DNA of 64,000 nt from a virus (Duplodnaviria; Heunggongvirae; Uroviricota; Caudoviricetes). The stretch lies in IMG/VR virus record IMGVR_UViG_2925939204_000001, one strand, 5' to 3'. Position numbers and translations under genes: made by a program. A model generated the notes under the pieces. It was not told the DNA's origin and ran no database searches. It saw only the letters and a list, made by a program, of their open reading frames with translations. Shown here piece by piece: positions 12,250 through 51,300 of this stretch; position 1 is the first letter of the stretch, and every line of letters begins with the position of its first letter.

Positions 12250-12280
12250 GAAGCCCGCCTGGTTGAGCGGGCTTCTTTTC
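12250..12280. terminator. bidirectional terminator hairpin between 11395..12195 and doc
   Basis: GAAGCCCGC-CTGGTTGA-GCGGGCTTC stem-loop followed by TTTTC. Confidence 0.55.
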
Positions 12281-12659
12281 AAATATTGGAACCAAATAAT
12301 TCACGTAGTTTTTCCGCTACTGAAGATACGGGGATTTCACCAGTTGCGGCCCCCACCGCAAGTTCCACCAGCACGGGAGAATCATATACCTGTATGCCGT
12401 TACGGCGTAGAAATAGCAGCGCACTGTTTAGCGCGGTACGCTTATTGGCATCATTGAATATATGCCCTCTCGCCGTAGCTACCAGGTAGGTGGCGGAGAC
12501 TTCGAAAAGGTCGGTGATCTCTTCGTAGGCAACTCTGGCCTGAACTCTCCCGATAATGGCCTCTGCCCTACCCGGATCAGACATTCCCGGCAGGCCGCCG
12601 TAGCGGTTTATATTCGCATCATGAAGCGCAATAAGTTCTTCTGGTGATATATGCCTCAT
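12279..12659 (-). CDS. doc: Doc toxin (Fic-fold kinase of the phd-doc addiction module)
   Basis: 126 aa; [17 protein letters not shown]...[13 protein letters not shown] matches P1 Doc as I recall it. Confidence 0.9.
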
Positions 12660-12880
12660 TATCGGTTAACCAGTTCCTTGTTGGTGGAGTCCAGGGTGTC
12701 AAACAGGGATGCAAATTCAGCATCCAGCGCCGCTTTTTTGTAGGCTTCAAAAGTAGCCTTGCTGACAATTACTGCTGGCTCTCGGCCTCTGCGGGTGATT
12801 TCAACCTCTTCCCCGGCTTCAACATTGTTGAGCACTTCAGAAAGGTTGCCGCGCGCGGTACGGAAGTTAATGGATTGCAT
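12659..12880 (-). CDS. phd: Phd antitoxin
   Basis: [39 protein letters not shown]; start overlaps doc; real start taken at the internal Met. Confidence 0.9.
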
Positions 12881-12952: not shown

Positions 12953-13342
12953 TTAAATCACCGGACAATCATCAAATTCCCCACTTCGGGCATCATTGAT
13001 GGCATGAGTGATCACACCAAAAACAGCATTACTGCCCGTGTATCCATCGTCATCTACTGGTAACGCCTCTTTCTTCCCGGTGCTTAAGTCCTCCAGGTGC
13101 TGGCGCGGATACTTCCTGTATCTCTTTATGCGATATTCACCCTCCATAGCGCACACAAGCAGAGAACCATCAACCGGAGTAAGCGAGGAATCAACCACCA
13201 GCAAAGCACCCTGCAATATTCCCTCACGGTGATGGCTGTCTGCCGCCCGCATGAAGTAGGTCGCTGATGGATGCCTGATTAGTTGCTGATCAAGAGAAAT
13301 TCGGCTTTCAACATAATCCGCCGCAGGAGAAGGGAAGCCCAT
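12953..13342 (-). CDS. humD: HumD, UmuD'-like translesion synthesis accessory protein
   Basis: GFPSPAADYVE.RI.L.Q.LI.HPSATYF matches the UmuD core; lacks the UmuD N-terminal extension. Confidence 0.88.
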   Translation of the reverse strand: MGFPSPAADYVESRISLDQQLIRHPSATYFMRAADSHHREGILQGALLVVDSSLTPVDGSLLVCAMEGEYRIKRYRKYPRQHLEDLSTGKKEALPVDDDGYTGSNAVFGVITHAINDARSGEFDDCPVI

Positions 13343-13379: not shown

Positions 13380-15300
13380 GTGCGCCGGGAGACCGGTAGA
13401 GATCAAGGGGTGAAAGTCCCCGACCATTGAAGGACCAGCAATCCACAAGGTCCCCGAGTCATGCGTTGCATACCGCGAGGTATGGGGCGAAGCGTTGACA
13501 GGGGTGTTGACAGGCCAGCCATTGAGCCACGAAATGTATATTAAATTACCGGGTGCCGACGTTGTACTGTTAACGGAAGGCAACATCATAGGGTGCGATA
13601 CTGCGAGTGCCACATGGACCCGGCGGGGTCTGAGACCCTGGCATGTCAATACGATCTCTACGCGGGAACCGGGAGATCTCCCCTCTGACCATCTGCCAGT
13701 GTCGGAGATGGCCCGCACCGGGAAGACGAGGAGTCATAGCCGGTGATGTACGGAGAGGAGAAGTCGGACTCGCTCATAGTAGCGGCGAAGCAGGCGAACA
13801 ACCCGAAAGGAGCGGAGTCAGTGGAGCGAAGGAGCGGGGCCAAGGGGAACGCGGAACAGCCACACATGCGCCGGACACAGAGCCGGGAAAGCATGTCACA
13901 GAGGCTGTCACGCGTGCGGGAAGCTGCGAAGCAGCAGAAGAAAGAACGGTTTACAGCATTGTTCCACCTGCTGACAGTCGAAGCACTGGAAGCCGCATTC
14001 CTCTCCCTGAGCAGGAAAGCGGCCGCGGGAGTGGATGGCATCAGGTGGATGGACTACGCCGGAAACATGAAGAACAACATAACAGATCTGCACCGGAGGC
14101 TACATCAGGGCAGCTACAGGGCGCAGCCCGGCAGGCGTCACTACATCCCAAAAGCGGATGGAAAACAACGCCCGCTCGGCATCGCCTCGCTGGAGGACAA
14201 GATCGTCCAGTATGCGCTGGTGAAAATCCTGAACGCAGTCTATGAAAACGACTTTATGGGGTTCTCATACGGGTTCAGACCCGGGCGAAACCAGCACGAT
14301 GCACTGGACGCACTGGCCACAGGGCTGGTACGCACTAACGTAAACTGGGTACTGGATGCCGACATCAGTCAGTTCTTCGACAGGGTGAGCCACGAATGGC
14401 TGATCAGGTTCACAGAGCATCGGATCGGCGACCGGAGGGTAATCAGGCTCATACGTAAGTGGCTCACAGCCGGGACGTCGGAGGAGGGTCAATGGCGAGC
14501 AACGGAGGAAGGCACCCCACAGGGTGCGGTCATCTCACCGCTGCTGGCAAACATATACCTCCACTACGTCTTCGATCTGTGGGCGCATCAGTGGCGACGT
14601 CGCTATGCCACAGGCAATGTGGTAATGGTCAGATACGCCGATGACATCGTCATCGGGTTCGACAAACGATACGATGCCCGGCGCTTCCGTATAGCCATGC
14701 AGCGCAGACTGAGGGAGTTCGGACTCACGGTTCACCCGGAGAAAACCCGTCTGATGGAGTTCGGCCGCTTCGCTGCCGAAAACCGTGCCATCAGGGGAAA
14801 AGGCAAACCAGAAACGTTCAACTTCCTCGGGTTCACGCACATCAGCGGGAAAGATCGCAACGGCAGGTTCATGCTGATACGAAAGACCCGCCGGGATCGG
14901 ATGACGGCAACTCTGAAAGCCATCAAAGACGGTCTGCGAAGGCGCTGGCATTACTCAATCCCCGAACAGGGAAAATGGCTCAGGAGAGTGGTTCAGGGAT
15001 ACCTGAACTATCACTCGGTACCGGGCAACTTCCCCACCATGCAGAAGTTCAGGACACACGTAACAAACCTCTGGCGCCGGGCGCTCAGGCGCAGGAGCCA
15101 GAAGGATGATACGACCTGGACGAAAGCAAACAAACTGGCAGCCGCATGGCTACCAAGGGTTCGGGTTCTTCATCCATGGCCTGTGGAGCGGTTCACCGCC
15201 AGACACCCGAGGCAGGAGCCCGGTGCGTAAATCGCGCACGCCGGGATCTGTGCGGGGGGTATCCGGTAACGGGTATCCCTACCGCGACATACATTGAAAA
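13380..15300 (+). mobile_element. group II intron (bacterial, ORF in domain IV); 3' boundary approximate
   Basis: 5' end GTGCGCC; internal RT/maturase ORF; 34-nt domain V-like hairpin with GUAA tetraloop and 2-nt bulge at 15252-15285 after the ORF. Confidence 0.7.
13743..15230 (+). CDS. group II intron-encoded reverse transcriptase/maturase
   Basis: RT motifs including GTPQGAVISPLLANIYL and YADD; C-terminal maturase region; no Cys-rich HNH endonuclease domain visible. Confidence 0.9.
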   Translation: MMYGEEKSDSLIVAAKQANNPKGAESVERRSGAKGNAEQPHMRRTQSRESMSQRLSRVREAAKQQKKERFTALFHLLTVEALEAAFLSLSRKAAAGVDGIRWMDYAGNMKNNITDLHRRLHQGSYRAQPGRRHYIPKADGKQRPLGIASLEDKIVQYALVKILNAVYENDFMGFSYGFRPGRNQHDALDALATGLVRTNVNWVLDADISQFFDRVSHEWLIRFTEHRIGDRRVIRLIRKWLTAGTSEEGQWRATEEGTPQGAVISPLLANIYLHYVFDLWAHQWRRRYATGNVVMVRYADDIVIGFDKRYDARRFRIAMQRRLREFGLTVHPEKTRLMEFGRFAAENRAIRGKGKPETFNFLGFTHISGKDRNGRFMLIRKTRRDRMTATLKAIKDGLRRRWHYSIPEQGKWLRRVVQGYLNYHSVPGNFPTMQKFRTHVTNLWRRALRRRSQKDDTTWTKANKLAAAWLPRVRVLHPWPVERFTARHPRQEPGA

Positions 15301-24542: not shown

Positions 24543-24576
24543 TATGTTAGAAAACTAAAATCAATGTTCTAACACG
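24543..24576. promoter_or_regulatory. paired operator-like sites (TATGTTAGAAAACTAAAAT and TGTTCTAACAC)
   Basis: Two copies of the recurring motif in opposite orientation, upstream of the 23507..24502 gene. Confidence 0.4.
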
Positions 24577-25821: not shown

Positions 25822-26093
25822 TTGGTTTTATCCTGTCTGAACATCACTATCATCAGGTCGCCTTTTGTCGCTATCCTCGCTGTTGTGCCTGGTTCAATGC
25901 TGCCAAGTTCAAATGCGTCATAGAACGCTTCTAATGCCTTCTGGCGTAGTTCCTGTTTGCGCCGTTTTTTCCACTGTTTCAGGAAAATGGAACCCAGCCA
26001 TCGCCATGTACGGGACATGATGTAAAGCCAACCGAGAAGTGCCAGACCGGAATTTAGGAGCGTATCGATCGTTATTGTCGTGTCGATATTCAC
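25818..26093 (-). CDS. small membrane protein (91 aa)
   Basis: Hydrophobic helix LLNSGLALLGWLYIM. Confidence 0.45.
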   Translation of the reverse strand: MNIDTTITIDTLLNSGLALLGWLYIMSRTWRWLGSIFLKQWKKRRKQELRQKALEAFYDAFELGSIEPGTTARIATKGDLMIVMFRQDKTK

Positions 26094-26785
26094 TGGCTGC
26101 CTCCTCTTCGAAGCTCATCGGCAAAGTCAGTTGCATGTTCACCGAGTAGTTTCCAGTTATCGCGTATATCAGATGCAAGCGACTGTTCGGATTTTGAGTT
26201 ACATTTCTGTGCAAACATCTCCAATCCCTGCGCCCGGACTTCAGCCAGGAAAGCATCAGTGGTTGGCGTTTCAGGTATCTGTCTCCTCATCCGTTCTATT
26301 GCATGATTGAACCCGAAGTCTTCCGCGAGAGATACGTCATCCATATTGTCATTGTCATCCTCAATATCCCGTGATTCTGGAATTGCAGACTTTATTCCCG
26401 CATTCTCCGCCGCCAGCGCCGCGCAATTACCCTCCAGCTCTGCAATGCGCTGTTTTGCGGCATCAAGTTCAATCGATAATTTTTCCAACTGCTCTTTATG
26501 CTTCTTGTATTCCTGATATGCGTGCCAGGACTGACCTTTGCGCACACTATCAGTAATATCAGTAATCTGTTCTGGTGTTAGCGTGGTCAGTGGCTGTGCT
26601 GGGAAAATCAGCACTTTCCCGGAATCCCAATCAAAACCAGCGTGAATTGACTGAACCTCAACTGAAGGTGTTGAACCAATGCTGCCAGGCGAATGAACAA
26701 CGATCGTTACATCCATATCGCGACGATGGCTGTGGTTGTTGGACAAAATACGATTCACCAACTCAGAAAATTTGGAAAATTTCAT
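26090..26785 (-). CDS. hypothetical protein with coiled-coil segment
   Basis: Contains the LAAENA motif shared with the paralogue-B family; start set at internal Met overlapping upstream stop. Confidence 0.5.
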
Positions 26786-27138
26786 GCTGATTCCCTTTGA
26801 TCTTCCTGGATAATGTTGTTGCAATCTTTCACGCACTCGTTGCAGATGAAAGCGTTGTCCCCGGCAATTAACTTTTTAACGGTGTGCTGGGATTTGTTGC
26901 AGAAGCTGCAATAAAGCGTTGGACTGGCTGATACGGATGGTGCGCCAGATGTCAGCCGCGCGATGTCGTTCTTGCGACGCAATATCACACGGCTGCACTC
27001 AACCAGCATCTCCGGGGATATACCCTCCTCCGTGGCGAGCGCCTCCAGACGTTCGAGCAAGCGAAATACTTTTTCCTGGGTGATTGCATAATGCGATGTG
27101 GCCATCTCACTCTCCTTTGATGCGAATGCCTGTTGCAA
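26782..27138 (-). CDS. small protein with ClpX-type zinc-binding domain
   Basis: [29 protein letters not shown] closely resembles the ClpX N-terminal C4 zinc-finger (LYCSFCGKSQHEVRKLIAG...ICDECV); no AAA+ module. Confidence 0.6.
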
Positions 27139-27592
27139 TGCTGTTTATGATGCTGTCAGTGCATGGGGTAGAAAGCTGGGCATCTCCAGCAATTTTCATG
27201 ACCTCAACATCTGCATATCGAATACCGAGGTGTATCAGACCGGCTATGCCTGACTTAAGCCGAGCATTTTCCATAAATAGAACTTTTGCCCGCTGTTTTT
27301 CTGCTTCAAGCTCAACGCGCAGCTTCCCTACCGTTAGCGCAATATCCTCGTTCTCCTGATCGCGGAGTTTGATGTATTGCTGGTTTTTTTCCCGTTCATC
27401 CAGTAGTGCCAGCACGGTTTCTGGTCCGGTCAGAAATTTGAAGGCGTTGAGCGCATCAATATCCACACCGTAATCTTTAAGTTCCTGTTCACTTAACAAG
27501 TCATCATCAGCTGGCAACATTAACAGGCGTTCCATTGCTGGAATTGCACGTTCCGCCACCTCACGCAGTGCCTGGTAATTAATTTCGCTCAC
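27107..27592 (-). CDS. hypothetical protein, paralogue family A (second copy)
   Basis: 161 aa; N-terminus near-identical to 21545..22204. Confidence 0.55.
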
Positions 27593-28002
27593 TGGATGAC
27601 TCCTTTACGAAGCTGTTCAGCGATATCTTCGAGAACGCCATCAGAGAATGAGCGGTCAAAATCTCCTTCCGGCGCATTAGCCATAAACTCAGTAGAGGTA
27701 AGAATCATCCTGGCAATATCCGCGGCGTTCTTCGCAGTATCATCAATAAAACCAGCTACCCAGGCAGCCAGCATTCTGTTCGCCACAAAGTAGGCGCCTT
27801 CCTTGCGTGCTTCAGTCTTCACTTCAGCCAAGAAAGCGTCGGTGGCTGGCATATTTCCTGTTGCCTTCATGGCCTCCAAAATAACCAGAACGCCATCTCT
27901 CCCAACCTCCTCACAGATAACCTCAGTGTTGTCGCCAACAACATCGCAGAATGCCTGAACTGCTTTACGAGCCAGCTCATTCTCCGCAGCCAGCGCCGCG
28001 CG
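27304..28002. repeat. ~700-bp direct repeat, copy 2 (partner at 21916..22613)
   Basis: Same near-identical runs as copy 1. Confidence 0.8.
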
Positions 28003-28086
28003 CTCTTTCTCAAGTCGGGAAATTTCCGTTACATACTCAGCGTTACGCTCTGCCAGTTGTGCGGGCGTTAAACCTTCAGACTTCAT
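27589..28086 (-). CDS. hypothetical protein, paralogue family B (second copy)
   Basis: 165 aa; C-terminus near-identical to 22201..22860. Confidence 0.55.
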   Translation of the reverse strand: MKSEGLTPAQLAERNAEYVTEISRLEKERAALAAENELARKAVQAFCDVVGDNTEVICEEVGRDGVLVILEAMKATGNMPATDAFLAEVKTEARKEGAYFVANRMLAAWVAGFIDDTAKNAADIARMILTSTEFMANAPEGDFDRSFSDGVLEDIAEQLRKGVIQ

Positions 28087-29193: not shown

Positions 29194-29230
29194 TGTGTTA
29201 GAAAATCAATTTTGAATATCTAACAGTTTT
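29194..29230. promoter_or_regulatory. paired operator-like sites in the divergent promoter region between the pmg operon and ref
   Basis: TGTGTTAGAAAATCAAT and ATATCTAACAG copies of the recurring motif. Confidence 0.4.
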
Positions 29231-29273: not shown

Positions 29274-29852
29274 ATGCAGAAACAGAGCTATTGGGAGAAA
29301 CAGAGACAAAAAGCCATGCAAAAATTGGCTGACTCAGCCTGGCGAGAGGAACAAAGGGCAAAGCGCCTTCAACAAGCTCAACGCCAGCAGCAGCGAGCGA
29401 GAGAAAAAGCCGCATCGCCTGAATATCGGCAAAAGAAAATTGAAAAAGCAAAGCAATATGAACAGCGGAGAAAAGATAAAGCTGTATCCGCTCCGTCCAA
29501 AAAAACACGCACGTCACGCGGCCTGAAAGGCAGATCACTCACAGCCGATGAACGCCGGATACAGACCGCTATCGGTGCTCTCCCCTGCATTGCCTGCCAT
29601 ATTCACGGGCAACATAGCCCAGTGGTATCCCTGCACCATATCTTCGGGAGAACGGCAGAGAACGCGCATAAATATGTCCTCCCTTTGTGTAAATGGCACC
29701 ACCAGTACGCAGCGCCAGCCGAGGTCAGAGAACAATATCCCTGGCTGGTCCCTGTTCATGCTGACGGAAAAATAGGCGGAAAAGCAGATTTCATGCGGCA
29801 CAATGCCGATGAAATGACGTTGTATCAGATGGCGATTGAGTTGATAAATTAG
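29274..29852 (+). CDS. ref: Ref-like HNH endonuclease (recombination enhancement function)
   Basis: Lys/Arg/Gln-rich N-terminal ~80 aa then Cys/His-rich HNH-like core CIACHIHGQHSPVVSLHHIF...CKWHH; architecture matches P1 Ref. Confidence 0.6.
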   Translation: MQKQSYWEKQRQKAMQKLADSAWREEQRAKRLQQAQRQQQRAREKAASPEYRQKKIEKAKQYEQRRKDKAVSAPSKKTRTSRGLKGRSLTADERRIQTAIGALPCIACHIHGQHSPVVSLHHIFGRTAENAHKYVLPLCKWHHQYAAPAEVREQYPWLVPVHADGKIGGKADFMRHNADEMTLYQMAIELIN

Positions 29853-29863
29853 TTTTCTAACAT
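29850..29863. promoter_or_regulatory. operator-like site TAGTTTTCTAACAT
   Basis: Copy of the recurring motif just downstream of ref. Confidence 0.4.
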
Positions 29864-30456
29864 TTTAAGTTGAATTGAAAAACTCTCCGATGTACATTCA
29901 CTACCGATTGGCACACCGGTCAACTTTTTGAGACAAACTGTTTAGTTTTTCGTATTATTGCCTCCGCCATACCTATGGCGGTGCAATATAGGTGGCTGAA
30001 AAGCCCCCGTTGACTCACGGTGTTCCAGCCTTTATTGCGCCGCCACCAGACCGTGGAACAGTCGATGGCGGCTCCGAAAGCAAGGAGTCACAACACTATG
30101 AACAACTACAGTCTTTTCCCATCACTCGTCGTCCACCACTCACGCGATAATCTGCATTCTTTACTCGCGCTGGGGGTGTCAAAATGACTGTTCGCTACCT
30201 CAACTTTCAAATCAAGAACATTACTGGCGGTTGCTATGACTGGTTTGTCACTCTCGGAAAAGAAGTGATCACCGGGAAGCTGGATGAAGTGAAAGCTAAA
30301 GCAATGGCCTACGCCTGCAAGCAAGCCCGGAAGAAATCCGCCAAAGCATAAAATACTGACTGTTGCGCCCTGGCATTATCGTGGGGTATATTTCTACGGC
30401 ACCTTAGAAAAACGGGTGCCGGGATTGGAACCCCGGATAATGCAAAAGGCGACACA

Positions 30457-30478
30457 GACGCCGAAAGCGTCTTTTTTT
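30457..30478 (+). terminator. Rho-independent terminator
   Basis: GACGCCGAAAGCGTC hairpin followed by TTTTTTT. Confidence 0.6.
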
Positions 30479-30479
30479 G

Positions 30480-30640
30480 TGTCATGCCATCGCACAGCCA
30501 TACGTAGCGTTTAGCTCAGAGATCAATGGTAGTGCTGGCTGGGCTGCCGAAAGGCAGGCCGGTTCCCTTTTGCGCCGGTAGTTCCAACCCAGTCAGTGCT
30601 ACCGCCATTGAGATTGGAACCTCACGCGGTAGCTCCTTAA
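30480..30640 (+). ncRNA. putative c4-like antisense RNA / immI leader region
   Basis: Non-coding leader upstream of an icd-ant pair with short mutually complementary elements (GTTCCAAC at ~30579 and TTGGAAC at ~30613) near the icd RBS; boundaries not determined. Confidence 0.3.
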
Positions 30641-30663: not shown

Positions 30664-30879
30664 ATGGCTACTACCCCTACCCCAACTCATTCTGAATTTA
30701 TCTGGCGTTTCTATTCCTGCCAAAAACACCTCTATATCTGCGTCATGGCTGCTACCGAAGCAGAAGCGCGCTCATACCTTCCCGAAGAACCCTGCATTTT
30801 TGCTGCTCGCTTCACTCTTGATGCGATGGAGATCCTCAATTACTGGAATCTGCCGATGAACTGCGTGGAGGTGCACTGA
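30664..30879 (+). CDS. Icd-like small protein (71 aa)
   Basis: Small ORF directly upstream of and coupled to the antirepressor gene; paralogue of 51308..51523. Confidence 0.5.
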   Translation: MATTPTPTHSEFIWRFYSCQKHLYICVMAATEAEARSYLPEEPCIFAARFTLDAMEILNYWNLPMNCVEVH

Positions 30880-31820
30880 TGAATCTGTCCATCTCTCAAA
30901 AAGCGACAATGACCAGTATTGAGATCGCGGAACTGGTAGGTAAGCGTCATGATAATGTGAAGCGTACCATTGAAGTATTAACTAAAGGTGGTGTCATTCA
31001 ATTTCCTCAAATTGAGGAAATTGAAAATAAACAATCAGTTGGCCCTCGTCGATTTTCCAAGGCTTACATCTTTGAAGGCGAACAAGGCAAGCGTGACAGT
31101 ATCATTGTCGTCGCACAGCTTTCTCCCGAATTTACCGCCCGGCTGGTGGACCGCTGGCGCGAACTGGAGAATGCCCGGGTACAGTTAAAATCAAAAGCCG
31201 AAATCCTGGCTGAAATGGCGCAAATGCATCTTGAGCATGAACGCCGGATCAACGCCGTAAATGCCCAGGTAGCCGAGGTATCAGCACAAGTATCGATGGT
31301 CGCTGAAACACTCGAGCAAATAAAGAAGGGCAATATTCCGGAAGGCTACATTGGCTACCGCCAGCTGGCTGCGAAATGTGGCCTGACTGAAGCCAAATGC
31401 CGAAACCTGGTCAACGCTTACCGGATTCCCACCGATACGCATGAGTTTTTAACTCCCGATGGTTTGCTTGCGCGACGCTCCATTGTGGCCCTGGCCCCCT
31501 TCCGGAAAGCCTTTAAGCAGGTGATGTCGGAGGCAGAACCACGCAATAAACGCTGGTATCATCCAAAGATGGGGATGTTTCAGGCAATCCACCATCCTGT
31601 GCCTGAAAGCCCAAAGGATAATCTGTCACTACATACCGCCAGAGAGAAGATCAGGACTGGATACGCAACAGTGTGTCGTCGTTCTTCCTGGCCTGAAGGT
31701 ATATGGGTGTGGCCCGAAGGTGGATCACGAAAGCACTGGCGCACCATCCGTGACGGGAAAATCCATGCTATTGATTTAGCTCCAGAGGATGTTATTGCTA
31801 TGGACTGGATTGTTAGTTAA
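30879..31820 (+). CDS. antirepressor-like protein (Rha-type N-terminal domain, shared Ant C-terminal domain)
   Basis: N-terminus TSIEIAELVGKRHDNVKRTIEVL resembles phage Rha regulatory domain; C-terminal ~210 aa near-identical to 51523..52521. Confidence 0.6.
   Translation: MNLSISQKATMTSIEIAELVGKRHDNVKRTIEVLTKGGVIQFPQIEEIENKQSVGPRRFSKAYIFEGEQGKRDSIIVVAQLSPEFTARLVDRWRELENARVQLKSKAEILAEMAQMHLEHERRINAVNAQVAEVSAQVSMVAETLEQIKKGNIPEGYIGYRQLAAKCGLTEAKCRNLVNAYRIPTDTHEFLTPDGLLARRSIVALAPFRKAFKQVMSEAEPRNKRWYHPKMGMFQAIHHPVPESPKDNLSLHTAREKIRTGYATVCRRSSWPEGIWVWPEGGSRKHWRTIRDGKIHAIDLAPEDVIAMDWIVS
31185..31820. repeat. ~635-bp direct repeat, copy 1 (partner at 51887..52521)
   Basis: Near-identical DNA across the 3' two-thirds of both ant genes. 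Confidence 0.85.
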
Positions 31821-41304: not shown

Positions 41305-41346
41305 CATTTGTGTTAGATAATTAATATGTATTTTCTAACACAAATG
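41305..41346. promoter_or_regulatory. inverted pair of operator-like half-sites (CATTTGTGTTAGA ... TCTAACACAAATG)
   Basis: Perfect 13-bp inverted repeat with 16-bp AT-rich spacer directly upstream of hrdC. Confidence 0.5.
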
Positions 41347-50966: not shown

Positions 50967-51003
50967 TATGTTAGAAAAATAATTTGAATTTTCGAACATA
51001 AAC
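50967..51003. promoter_or_regulatory. paired operator-like sites (TATGTTAGAAAAATAAT and variant TTTTCGAACAT)
   Basis: Copies of the recurring motif upstream of the second immI-like module. Confidence 0.35.
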
Positions 51004-51134
51004 AATAAAATAAATCATCAAAAATTTGATGTTGATCTTCCATGTTTTCAGGCTTATATTCACGCCGTTGCAGCAAATTCTGCGACCGGGTTTAGCAGCC
51101 TGAATGTACATGCGGACAACCGCAGATATCCGAT

Positions 51135-51300
51135 ATTGCGGTATTTTTGTGTCCGTAAAACCATGTTACGCCCGAATTATGGTGGGGCGTGATGGGGAGG
51201 CTTCGGCCTGCTGGTTTCATGTACGCCAGTCTGCTAACCCCGTCACGTCCTGCCACCCGTTTAGCAGCGGGTAGCAGGTTGTTAAACCTGTACATGAGGC
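51135..51300 (+). ncRNA. putative c4-like antisense RNA / immI leader region (second copy, different sequence)
   Basis: Same architecture as 30480-30640: hairpin with T run at ~51101-51130, then leader with self-complementary TGTACA-containing elements near the icd RBS. Confidence 0.25.

Follow-up and report, generated by a model that had tools for sequence, protein, structure and literature searches.

A phage-plasmid gene encodes a free ClpX-type zinc-binding domain behind a conserved helical hairpin, a candidate competitor for ligands of the host unfoldase

Why should a phage element carry the recognition domain of a host unfoldase with no unfoldase attached to it? The question is raised by a gene on the minus strand of a 64,000-nucleotide stretch of viral DNA (IMG/VR record IMGVR_UViG_2925939204_000001; hereafter the window), which a reading of the sequence alone had described as a stand-alone ClpX zinc-binding-domain (ZBD) protein, possibly acting as a decoy or competitor for the adaptors and substrates of ClpX. 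The surrounding DNA matches phage D6 and hundreds of ~90-kb non-mobilizable plasmids of E. coli, Salmonella and Shigella, and these plasmids are P1-related phage-plasmids. The window also encodes a UmuD'-like S24 peptidase (12953..13342), Ref, two C4 antisense RNAs and tRNAs.

The open reading frame listed at 26782..27138 (minus strand) yields 118 aa when read from a TTG codon, and this was the length given in the sequence-only reading. The reading frame stands; the length probably does not. An ATG at 27105-27103, which gives 107 aa, is favoured over the TTG because the GGAG core of the Shine-Dalgarno sequence AAAGGAGAG (27110..27118, minus strand) is separated from it by 6 nt, the TGA stop of the upstream gene (27109-27107) lies 1 nt before it, and RefSeq homologues are annotated as 107 aa. 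The equivalent methionine is also the first residue in most homologue clusters. The coding sequence is thus placed at 26782..27105 (minus strand; 107 codons plus TGA), and its product matches PHROG 6797 over residues 1-106/107 with E=5.5e-54. The in-frame extension from the TTG (27106..27138, minus strand) contains the Shine-Dalgarno sequence and shares bases with the 3' end of the upstream gene; it probably does not belong to the protein. The upstream gene (27107..27592, minus strand) encodes a 161-aa Ead/Ea22-like protein (Pfam PF13935, E=9.3e-32). The downstream gene (26090..26785, minus strand) encodes an Ea22-like protein of 231 aa from the ATG at 26785 (PF13935, E=3.7e-9), and this ATG overlaps the stop codon of the ZBD gene as ATGA (26785-26782), a layout shared with D6-type loci. 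From the spacing of stops and starts at both ends, we conclude that the ZBD gene sits in a tightly packed, translationally coupled leftward operon.

The protein's C-terminal portion, residues 63-104 (26794..26919, minus strand), is a C4 zinc-binding domain of the ClpX type. Pfam PF06689 (zf-C4_ClpX) is matched by residues 65-101 over positions 2-39 of its 39, with E=1.8e-17 and a score of 63.4 bits where the gathering threshold is 27, and the best PDB sequence matches (E ~1e-14) are the isolated E. coli ClpX ZBD (1OVX, 2DS5) and full-length ClpX chains. A hand count in the PDB alignment gives 26 identical residues of 39 (67%) relative to E. coli ClpX residues 13-51. Alignment with the ClpX N-terminus, the check proposed with the sequence-only reading, gave identical cysteine spacing: C66-x2-C69-x18-C88-x2-C91 (codons at 26910-26908, 26901-26899, 26844-26842 and 26835-26833) against C15-x2-C18-x18-C37-x2-C40 in ClpX. 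All four cysteines are invariant among 14 family members. In an AlphaFold model built from 13 family sequences (mean pLDDT 72.9, and 80-88 within the ZBD), Foldseek superimposed the predicted domain on 2DS5, 2DS6 and 2DS7 at 0.5-0.7 Å over 38 residues, with 66-68% identity and TM-scores, normalised to the target, of 0.81-0.92. The likeness to the ClpX N-terminal domain is therefore as close as had been claimed from the letters. Conserved positions of the domain comprise the cysteine ligands, F68, the K77-G82 strand, V92, C95-N96 and I98-I99, and the variable positions (70, 72, 74, 75, 83-85, 89, 93, 94, 97 and 100-102) lie on the turn and on the solvent-facing side of the helix. On the strength of this domain identity, the phage protein would be expected to bind zinc and to dimerise.

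No AAA+ module accompanies the domain, again in agreement with the first reading. The chain stops at residue 107; of the ClpX equivalog models, TIGR00382 (cut-off 370.75 bits) gives 41.1 bits and NF003745 (cut-off 359) gives 45.9, with matches at model positions 5-50 only; and the gene downstream is Ea22-like, not an ATPase gene. We conclude that the protein is a free ClpX zinc-binding domain without an ATPase.

To what extent does this free domain retain the surfaces by which ClpX holds its ligands? In ClpX, NMR and mutagenesis place the unfolded degron of MqsA at L12, L13, H23, K27, I29 and A30 in Met1 numbering (PMC8808172), and a hydrophobic pocket for trigger factor, lambda O, SspB and RssB lies around residues numbered F16 and I46 in PMC7804408, which are F17 and I47 in Met1 numbering. 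ClpX L12, L13, H23, K27, I29, A30, F17 and I47 correspond to phage T63, L64, H74, K78, I80, A81, F68 and I98, so that the sole change among these ligand-site positions is L12 to T63. Within the family, F68 and I80 are invariant and L64 nearly so. Pro32 of the GPSV turn, present in all ClpX N-termini recovered, is Asp or Glu (GD/GE) in the D6-type clade and Asp in the window allele, whereas the P88 clade retains GPSVYIC. The position of ClpX Leu43 is Asp in the window allele.

Published biochemistry indicates what such a domain can do by itself. As an isolated domain, the ClpX ZBD is soluble and its Kd for XB-containing peptides is 35-82 nM (PMC12373786), and free ZBD added in trans causes dose-dependent inhibition of the breakdown of sigma-S by ClpXP that RssB mediates (PMC7226468). 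Degradation of lambda O requires the ClpX N-domain (PMC7804408), whose partners also include UmuD', MuA, FtsZ, SspB and unfolded MqsA (PMC8808172). As the isolated ClpX domain binds ligands and inhibits in trans, a free, folded ZBD in the cell is expected to compete for them.

The protein is more than a ZBD, however. Its N-terminal part is predicted to form a helical hairpin at residues 10-52 (26950..27078, minus strand; helices 10-26 and 31-52; pLDDT ~75-78), followed by a flexible linker at residues 53-62 (26920..26949, minus strand; pLDDT <50 at residues 55-60). The PHROG 6797 match extends over this two-domain architecture at full length, and the alignment with the D6 and P88 homologues spans both domains. 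Hairpin residues invariant in the D6-type and P88-type clades include E11, K12, E18, R19, E21, E26, E27, E36, R43, R44, D47 and L51. A phmmer search with residues 1-59 against 1.84 billion cluster representatives found no hairpin relatives outside the family: seven of its 10 matches were family members or fragments and three were unrelated, from which we conclude that the hairpin is family-specific. Searches of the PDB and BFVD found no fold match for the hairpin, only the ZBD part being matched. A derivation of the hairpin from an Ea22 module was also considered and rejected, as it gave no PF13935 hit at E<=1 and hhalign against the neighbouring Ea22-like proteins returned a probability of 0.9%. 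In the variants P0015 and P0017, a different N-terminus is joined at the linker, which is thus the recombination joint in these swapped-N-terminus forms.

Selection was compared between the two domains by pairwise Nei-Gojobori estimates among six D6-type alleles. With small substitution counts throughout, dN/dS was 0.15-0.66 for the hairpin (in pairs with enough substitutions) and 0.34-1.0 for the ZBD. Purifying selection is stronger on the hairpin than on the ZBD, in a direction that is consistent though the counts are small. Were the protein purely a ZBD decoy, the reverse order would be expected; the observed order suggests some partner for the hairpin.

The same family includes phage D6 orf93 (78% identity), phage P88 gp19 (49% identity) and PHROG 6797, whose function is unknown. 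In RefSeq the product is called "ClpX C4-type zinc finger protein"; the label "carboxylate--amine ligase" in older records is evidently wrong. As the gene has been annotated before, its presence is no discovery in itself; what is new here is the two-domain organisation, the order of constraint between the domains, the retained contact residues, the probable repressor-controlled early operon and the coupling to Ea22-like genes. The conserved hairpin, this coupling and the existing annotation had escaped the sequence-only reading.

A family member is found in ~194-220 of 5426 complete E. coli genomes (~4%), about half of the copies on plasmids and half in chromosomal prophages, and many of the carriers are clinical phage-plasmids. 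Across 78 IMG/VR loci, the gene occurs in D6-type 'ea-like' operons, in ~110-kb phage-plasmids, in a lambdoid-phage setting where it lies 2.4-2.9 kb after DnaT-like and lambda-P replication genes, and in P88/P2-type prophages (45 loci), where it directly follows gpA-ParM-StbB and precedes the portal gene. Another lambdoid phage has, behind DnaT/P/DUF1064, a rare variant in which the ZBD is fused to an Ea22-like N-terminus. All these settings are early or replication arms, not typical lysogenic-conversion sites. A conserved downstream partner gene was sought and rejected, since the neighbour varies with context (Ea22-like, hyp_L005, P88 gp20, phd/doc or nothing); P88 gp20 and hyp_L005 contain no Pfam domain. 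Genes for the ZBD only are carried by other phages (PHROGs 12435, 5259 and 20296), and in Pseudomonas D3-like phages they come immediately behind the replication genes.

How the operon might be controlled was examined at its upstream end. The leftward operon that holds the ZBD gene starts beside ref, across a divergent intergenic region, and this region contains a 14-nt inverted pair, TGTTAGAAAATCAA / TTGAATATCTAACA (29196..29225), that is a candidate operator. The window has 15 copies of the half-site TGTTAGAWAWTCAA, where 2.06 would be expected. One occurrence, at 50969, lies ~85 nt upstream of the C4 antisense-RNA locus at 51054, and another, at 29849, ~550 nt upstream of the second such locus at 30399. 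In P1, the C1 operator Op51 is located upstream of c4, and ref is controlled by C1. By analogy, we regard the pair at 29196-29225 as a putative operator of the element's master repressor, and the ZBD operon would then probably be early and repressor-controlled. The P1 C1 operator consensus itself, ATTGCTCTAATAAATTT, gave no site at <=3 mismatches, a different motif being found instead. A scan for sigma-70 promoters across 24-30 kb gave fewer matches than shuffled sequence and nothing usable.

The explanation that we consider best is that the protein serves as a decoy or competitor of the ClpX N-domain; we advance it tentatively, as a reading of sequence and predicted fold. The two-domain protein would be produced early in lytic development. 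Its C-terminal domain, a copy of the ClpX ZBD, would fold and dimerise alone and offer a ClpX-like peptide-binding groove, and the hairpin might contribute oligomerisation or a second, specific contact. Having no ATPase, the protein would hand nothing to ClpP and would compete in trans with host ClpX for ligands of the N-domain. Candidate ligands are XB-type adaptor tails (SspB, RssB), lambda-O-like initiators, UmuD/D', MuA and unfolded antitoxins such as MqsA. These would be selectively stabilised, and ClpXP activity that is independent of the N-domain would go on.

Several observations weigh in favour of such a decoy. The identity of the ZBD, its predicted fold and the conserved ligand-site residues make it plausible, ZBD-only genes are carried independently by other phages, and the genomic settings are consistent with early expression. 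Against it count the change of L12 to Thr, the loss of Pro32 in the D6-type clade and the Asp at the Leu43 position, as well as the abundance relative to ClpX that a decoy would need. The near-constant coupling to Ea22-like genes is not accounted for by the decoy model either. A full-text search of the literature for work on ClpX zinc domains that stand alone or are encoded by phages, and on the homologues described here, found none.

Because the decoy leaves the Ea22-like coupling unexplained, the main rival is that the ZBD acts as a generic peptide-binding or dimerising domain in a complex with the neighbouring Ea22-like coiled-coil proteins, its relation to ClpXP being only ancestral. An Ea22-like gene ends -3 to +23 nt from the ZBD start in 29 of the 32 assessable non-P88 viral loci, and the remaining three have an Ea22-like gene overlapping the 3' end. 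Among the P88-type loci, 8 of 45 have one ~600 nt downstream, whereas 37 have no Ea22-like gene nearby. P0015 and P0017 are natural fusions of an Ea22-like N-terminus to the ZBD, but such fusions are rare, with one cluster member each. Lambda Ea22 is a modular, tetrameric and pro-lysogenic protein that influences the lysis-lysogeny decision, with an exchangeable C-terminal domain and a ligand in the host (PMC10834534). The raised dN/dS of the ZBD and the loss, in the D6 clade, of the Pro32 conserved in ClpX also speak for this alternative. However, the ClpX ligand-contact residues are still conserved, the hairpin is not homologous to Ea22-like proteins by hhalign, and the adjacency may reflect recombination hot spots in mosaic 'ea' regions. 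The coupling and the rare fusions suggest a functional link, or at least shared recombination joints. Taken as a whole, we see this alternative as unlikely, and should the ZBD protein be only a partner of Ea22-like proteins, it would provide a handle on this long-unexplained family.

In a second alternative, the protein would hijack ClpX or act as an adaptor: the phage ZBD would form mixed dimers with the ClpX N-domain, or the hairpin would dock on ClpX. The unfoldase would in this way acquire a new binding surface, and ClpXP would be retargeted or blocked instead of merely losing ligands to the phage protein. Core and helix-face positions of the ZBD match ClpX (V92, C95, N96, I98/I99 and the K77-G82 strand), and stronger purifying selection on the hairpin than on the ZBD is what a specific partner surface would lead one to expect. 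However, no known ClpX-binding motif is recognised in the hairpin, and subunit exchange with a free domain is unlikely, as the N-domains of ClpX form constitutive, stable dimers whose local concentration in the hexamer is high. Phage adaptor-like proteins for host Clp machines do exist, SPO1 Gp53 for ClpCP being an example (PMC6873191). We regard this alternative as improbable.

That the gene is a decaying, functionless fragment of a captured clpX, a notion fed by its clearly ClpX-derived domain and by occasional frameshifted copies (P0035, P0036), is highly improbable and effectively refuted by the conservation data, since intact copies are present in ~220 complete E. coli genomes and in 78/78 IMG/VR loci examined (of 450 candidates), two clades that are 49% identical keep both domains, the four cysteines and a good ribosome-binding site, and dN/dS of the hairpin is 0.15-0.66. 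A recent capture from the host was rejected as well: the ZBD-coding DNA had no chromosomal clpX match in the 5426 genomes (at E<=1e-5 for the D6-type and E<=0.01 for the P88-type). With no residual DNA similarity to chromosomal clpX, the gene is old and independently maintained.

If the decoy reading is followed further, which protein of the element itself could profit from it? The sequence-only reading had named the antitoxin Phd. The element does encode Phd, at 12659..12880 (minus strand), in an ORF whose 5' end was recognised by pattern and whose sequence matches that of P1 Phd, with doc adjoining at 12279..12659 (minus strand). Phd is a ClpXP substrate, as stated in a review (PMC4963847) with reference to Lehnherr and Yarmolinsky 1995. 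The two genes, a core P1-type module, lie ~14 kb from the ZBD gene on the same strand. In P88-type prophages, phd/doc are convergent with the ZBD gene and immediately downstream of it in 4 of 45 viral loci, and they lie beside it in 18 E. coli genomes, compared with ~110 that have a full-length P88-type copy. The downstream site in these prophages is variable (phd/doc, P88 gp20, Ea22-like genes or nothing), and a specific association with phd/doc was rejected because it is confined to a minority of P88-type prophages. On whether recognition of Phd by ClpX needs the N-domain, our literature search found nothing, the review cited above dealing with degradation only (PMC4963847). A link of the ZBD protein to the Phd of its own element is thus weak and circumstantial. 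Under the decoy reading, the protein made early could keep Phd stable, and Doc would spare the phage's own lytic cycle. Lambda RexB is reported to act similarly, stabilising Phd against ClpXP.

A broader conjecture, which is possible and which we hold with more reserve, is that stand-alone ClpX recognition domains represent a general and so far unrecognised phage strategy. At least four PHROG families, from enterobacterial, Pseudomonas and Caulobacter phages, would mimic the substrate-docking domain of the host unfoldase. Made together with the products of early or replication genes, they would protect unstable proteins of the phage (O-type initiators, antitoxins such as Phd, UmuD'-like HumD) or stop host responses that adaptors drive, and the hairpin of the enterobacterial proteins would give a second, specific target. 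If the decoy reading is true, the protein would be, to our knowledge, the first natural trans-acting mimic of the recognition domain of an AAA+ protease. It would add a route by which phages and phage-plasmids tune host proteolysis, beside RexB, PinA and Gp4.5, and, being genetically encoded, would serve to inhibit selectively the ClpXP degradation that depends on the N-domain while sparing degradation of the ssrA type. It could also bear on how P1/D6-type plasmid prophages handle ClpXP-dependent Phd/Doc addiction during lytic growth.

The closest known relative of the domain is the E. coli ClpX ZBD itself (PF06689; 1OVX, 2DS5-2DS8), from which the phage protein takes the same Cys4 spacing, 67% identity over 39 residues and a fold predicted to lie within 0.5-0.7 Å. 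It lacks the ATPase, the ClpP-binding loops and the linker to an AAA+ ring, and differs further in placing a 52-residue helical segment, the hairpin, first. D6 orf93, P88 gp19 and PHROG 6797 share its two-domain architecture, and the window copy is one allele of this family. Other stand-alone ClpX-type domains are encoded among early or replication genes (PHROG 12435 of Pseudomonas D3-like phages, 65 aa; Caulobacter phage Cr30; PHROGs 5259 and 20296), but these ZBD-only proteins lack the hairpin. The Pseudomonas ones have changed residues at the XB site (L13 to H, A30 to K) and may bind something else.

Phages are known to adjust host proteolysis by other means. Lambda RexB blocks the turnover of lambda O, Phd and MazE by ClpXP/ClpAP, and T4 PinA and T7 Gp4.5 are Lon inhibitors. 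SPO1 Gp53 is adaptor-like for ClpCP (PMC6873191). RexB, PinA, Gp4.5 and Gp53 would share a purpose with the phage ZBD protein, and none is related to it in sequence or fold; no phage protein that uses a copy of an unfoldase's recognition domain as a competitor was found in our literature search. On the host side, IraD, IraM, IraP and IraL stabilise sigma-S by binding RssB, and so block delivery rather than the protease. Each of these anti-adaptors, whose folds are unrelated, is directed at a single adaptor, whereas competition by a free ZBD would extend to all ligands of the ClpX N-domain.

The gene for the 107-aa zinc-binding domain (ZBD) protein has as a neighbour a minus-strand gene for a 165-aa protein (27589-28086). 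In several plasmids, the N-terminal 17 residues of this neighbour (MKSEGLTPAQLAERNAE) are joined in frame to the ZBD protein, and both genes in between are lost (homologues P0001, P0004, P0006 and P0011; compared loci L024-L026). These in-frame MKSEGLTPAQLAERNAE::ZBD fusions show the mosaicism of the region, with recombination within coding sequences. GenBank and RefSeq name the 107-aa zinc-finger protein “carboxylate--amine ligase” (phage D6 gp034, phage P88 gp19 and many plasmids). No domain search of this analysis gave a match supporting that name for the 107-aa protein, and it appears to be an annotation error copied between records.

The window has 15 copies of the TGTTAGAWAWTCAA motif, whose core is TGTTAGAAAAnTAA, where 2.06 would be expected. 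The sites are spread over 3473-52990 (for example 29196-29225, 41311-41340, 24545-24558, 29849-29862 and 50969-50982) and include two inverted pairs. Each of the two C4 antisense-RNA loci has a site upstream, at a distance of ~85 nt in one case and ~550 nt in the other. We conclude that these sites are probably an operator set for a C1-type repressor of the element; the P1 operator consensus does not occur in the window. The two C4 loci are separate: that at 30399-30609 comes after an isrK-like RNA and has icd/ant-like ORFs behind it (30664-31820), and that at 51054-51260 has an a1/b1 C4-target element ahead (51054-51106). Two immI-type regions thus appear to be present in the element.

At its left end, the window has a cluster of four tRNA genes (549-2032). 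A group II intron (13413-15230) adjoins phd/doc, directly past a humD-like S24 peptidase gene; its parts are an RNA segment at 13413-13638, which matches Rfam RF02005 with 186.6 bits, and a plus-strand reverse-transcriptase/maturase ORF of 495 aa (13743..15230). A phd/doc toxin-antitoxin pair also lies downstream of the ZBD gene, and convergent with it, in a subset of P88/P2-type prophages (locus L004, 5818-7071; also L052, L074, L075 and L077), at a distance of ~170 bp by the annotated coordinates of L004. There, phd/doc occupies a variable slot with the early arm on one side and the portal gene on the other.

Pseudomonas D3-like phages encode ZBD-only proteins of 65 aa (PHROG 12435, labelled “protease”), whose genes lie directly downstream of replication genes (L010, 2504-2701; L011, 2489-2686). 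Compared with ClpX, these proteins carry two changes in the ligand site, L13 to H and A30 to K, and because of these they may not bind XB-type ligands.
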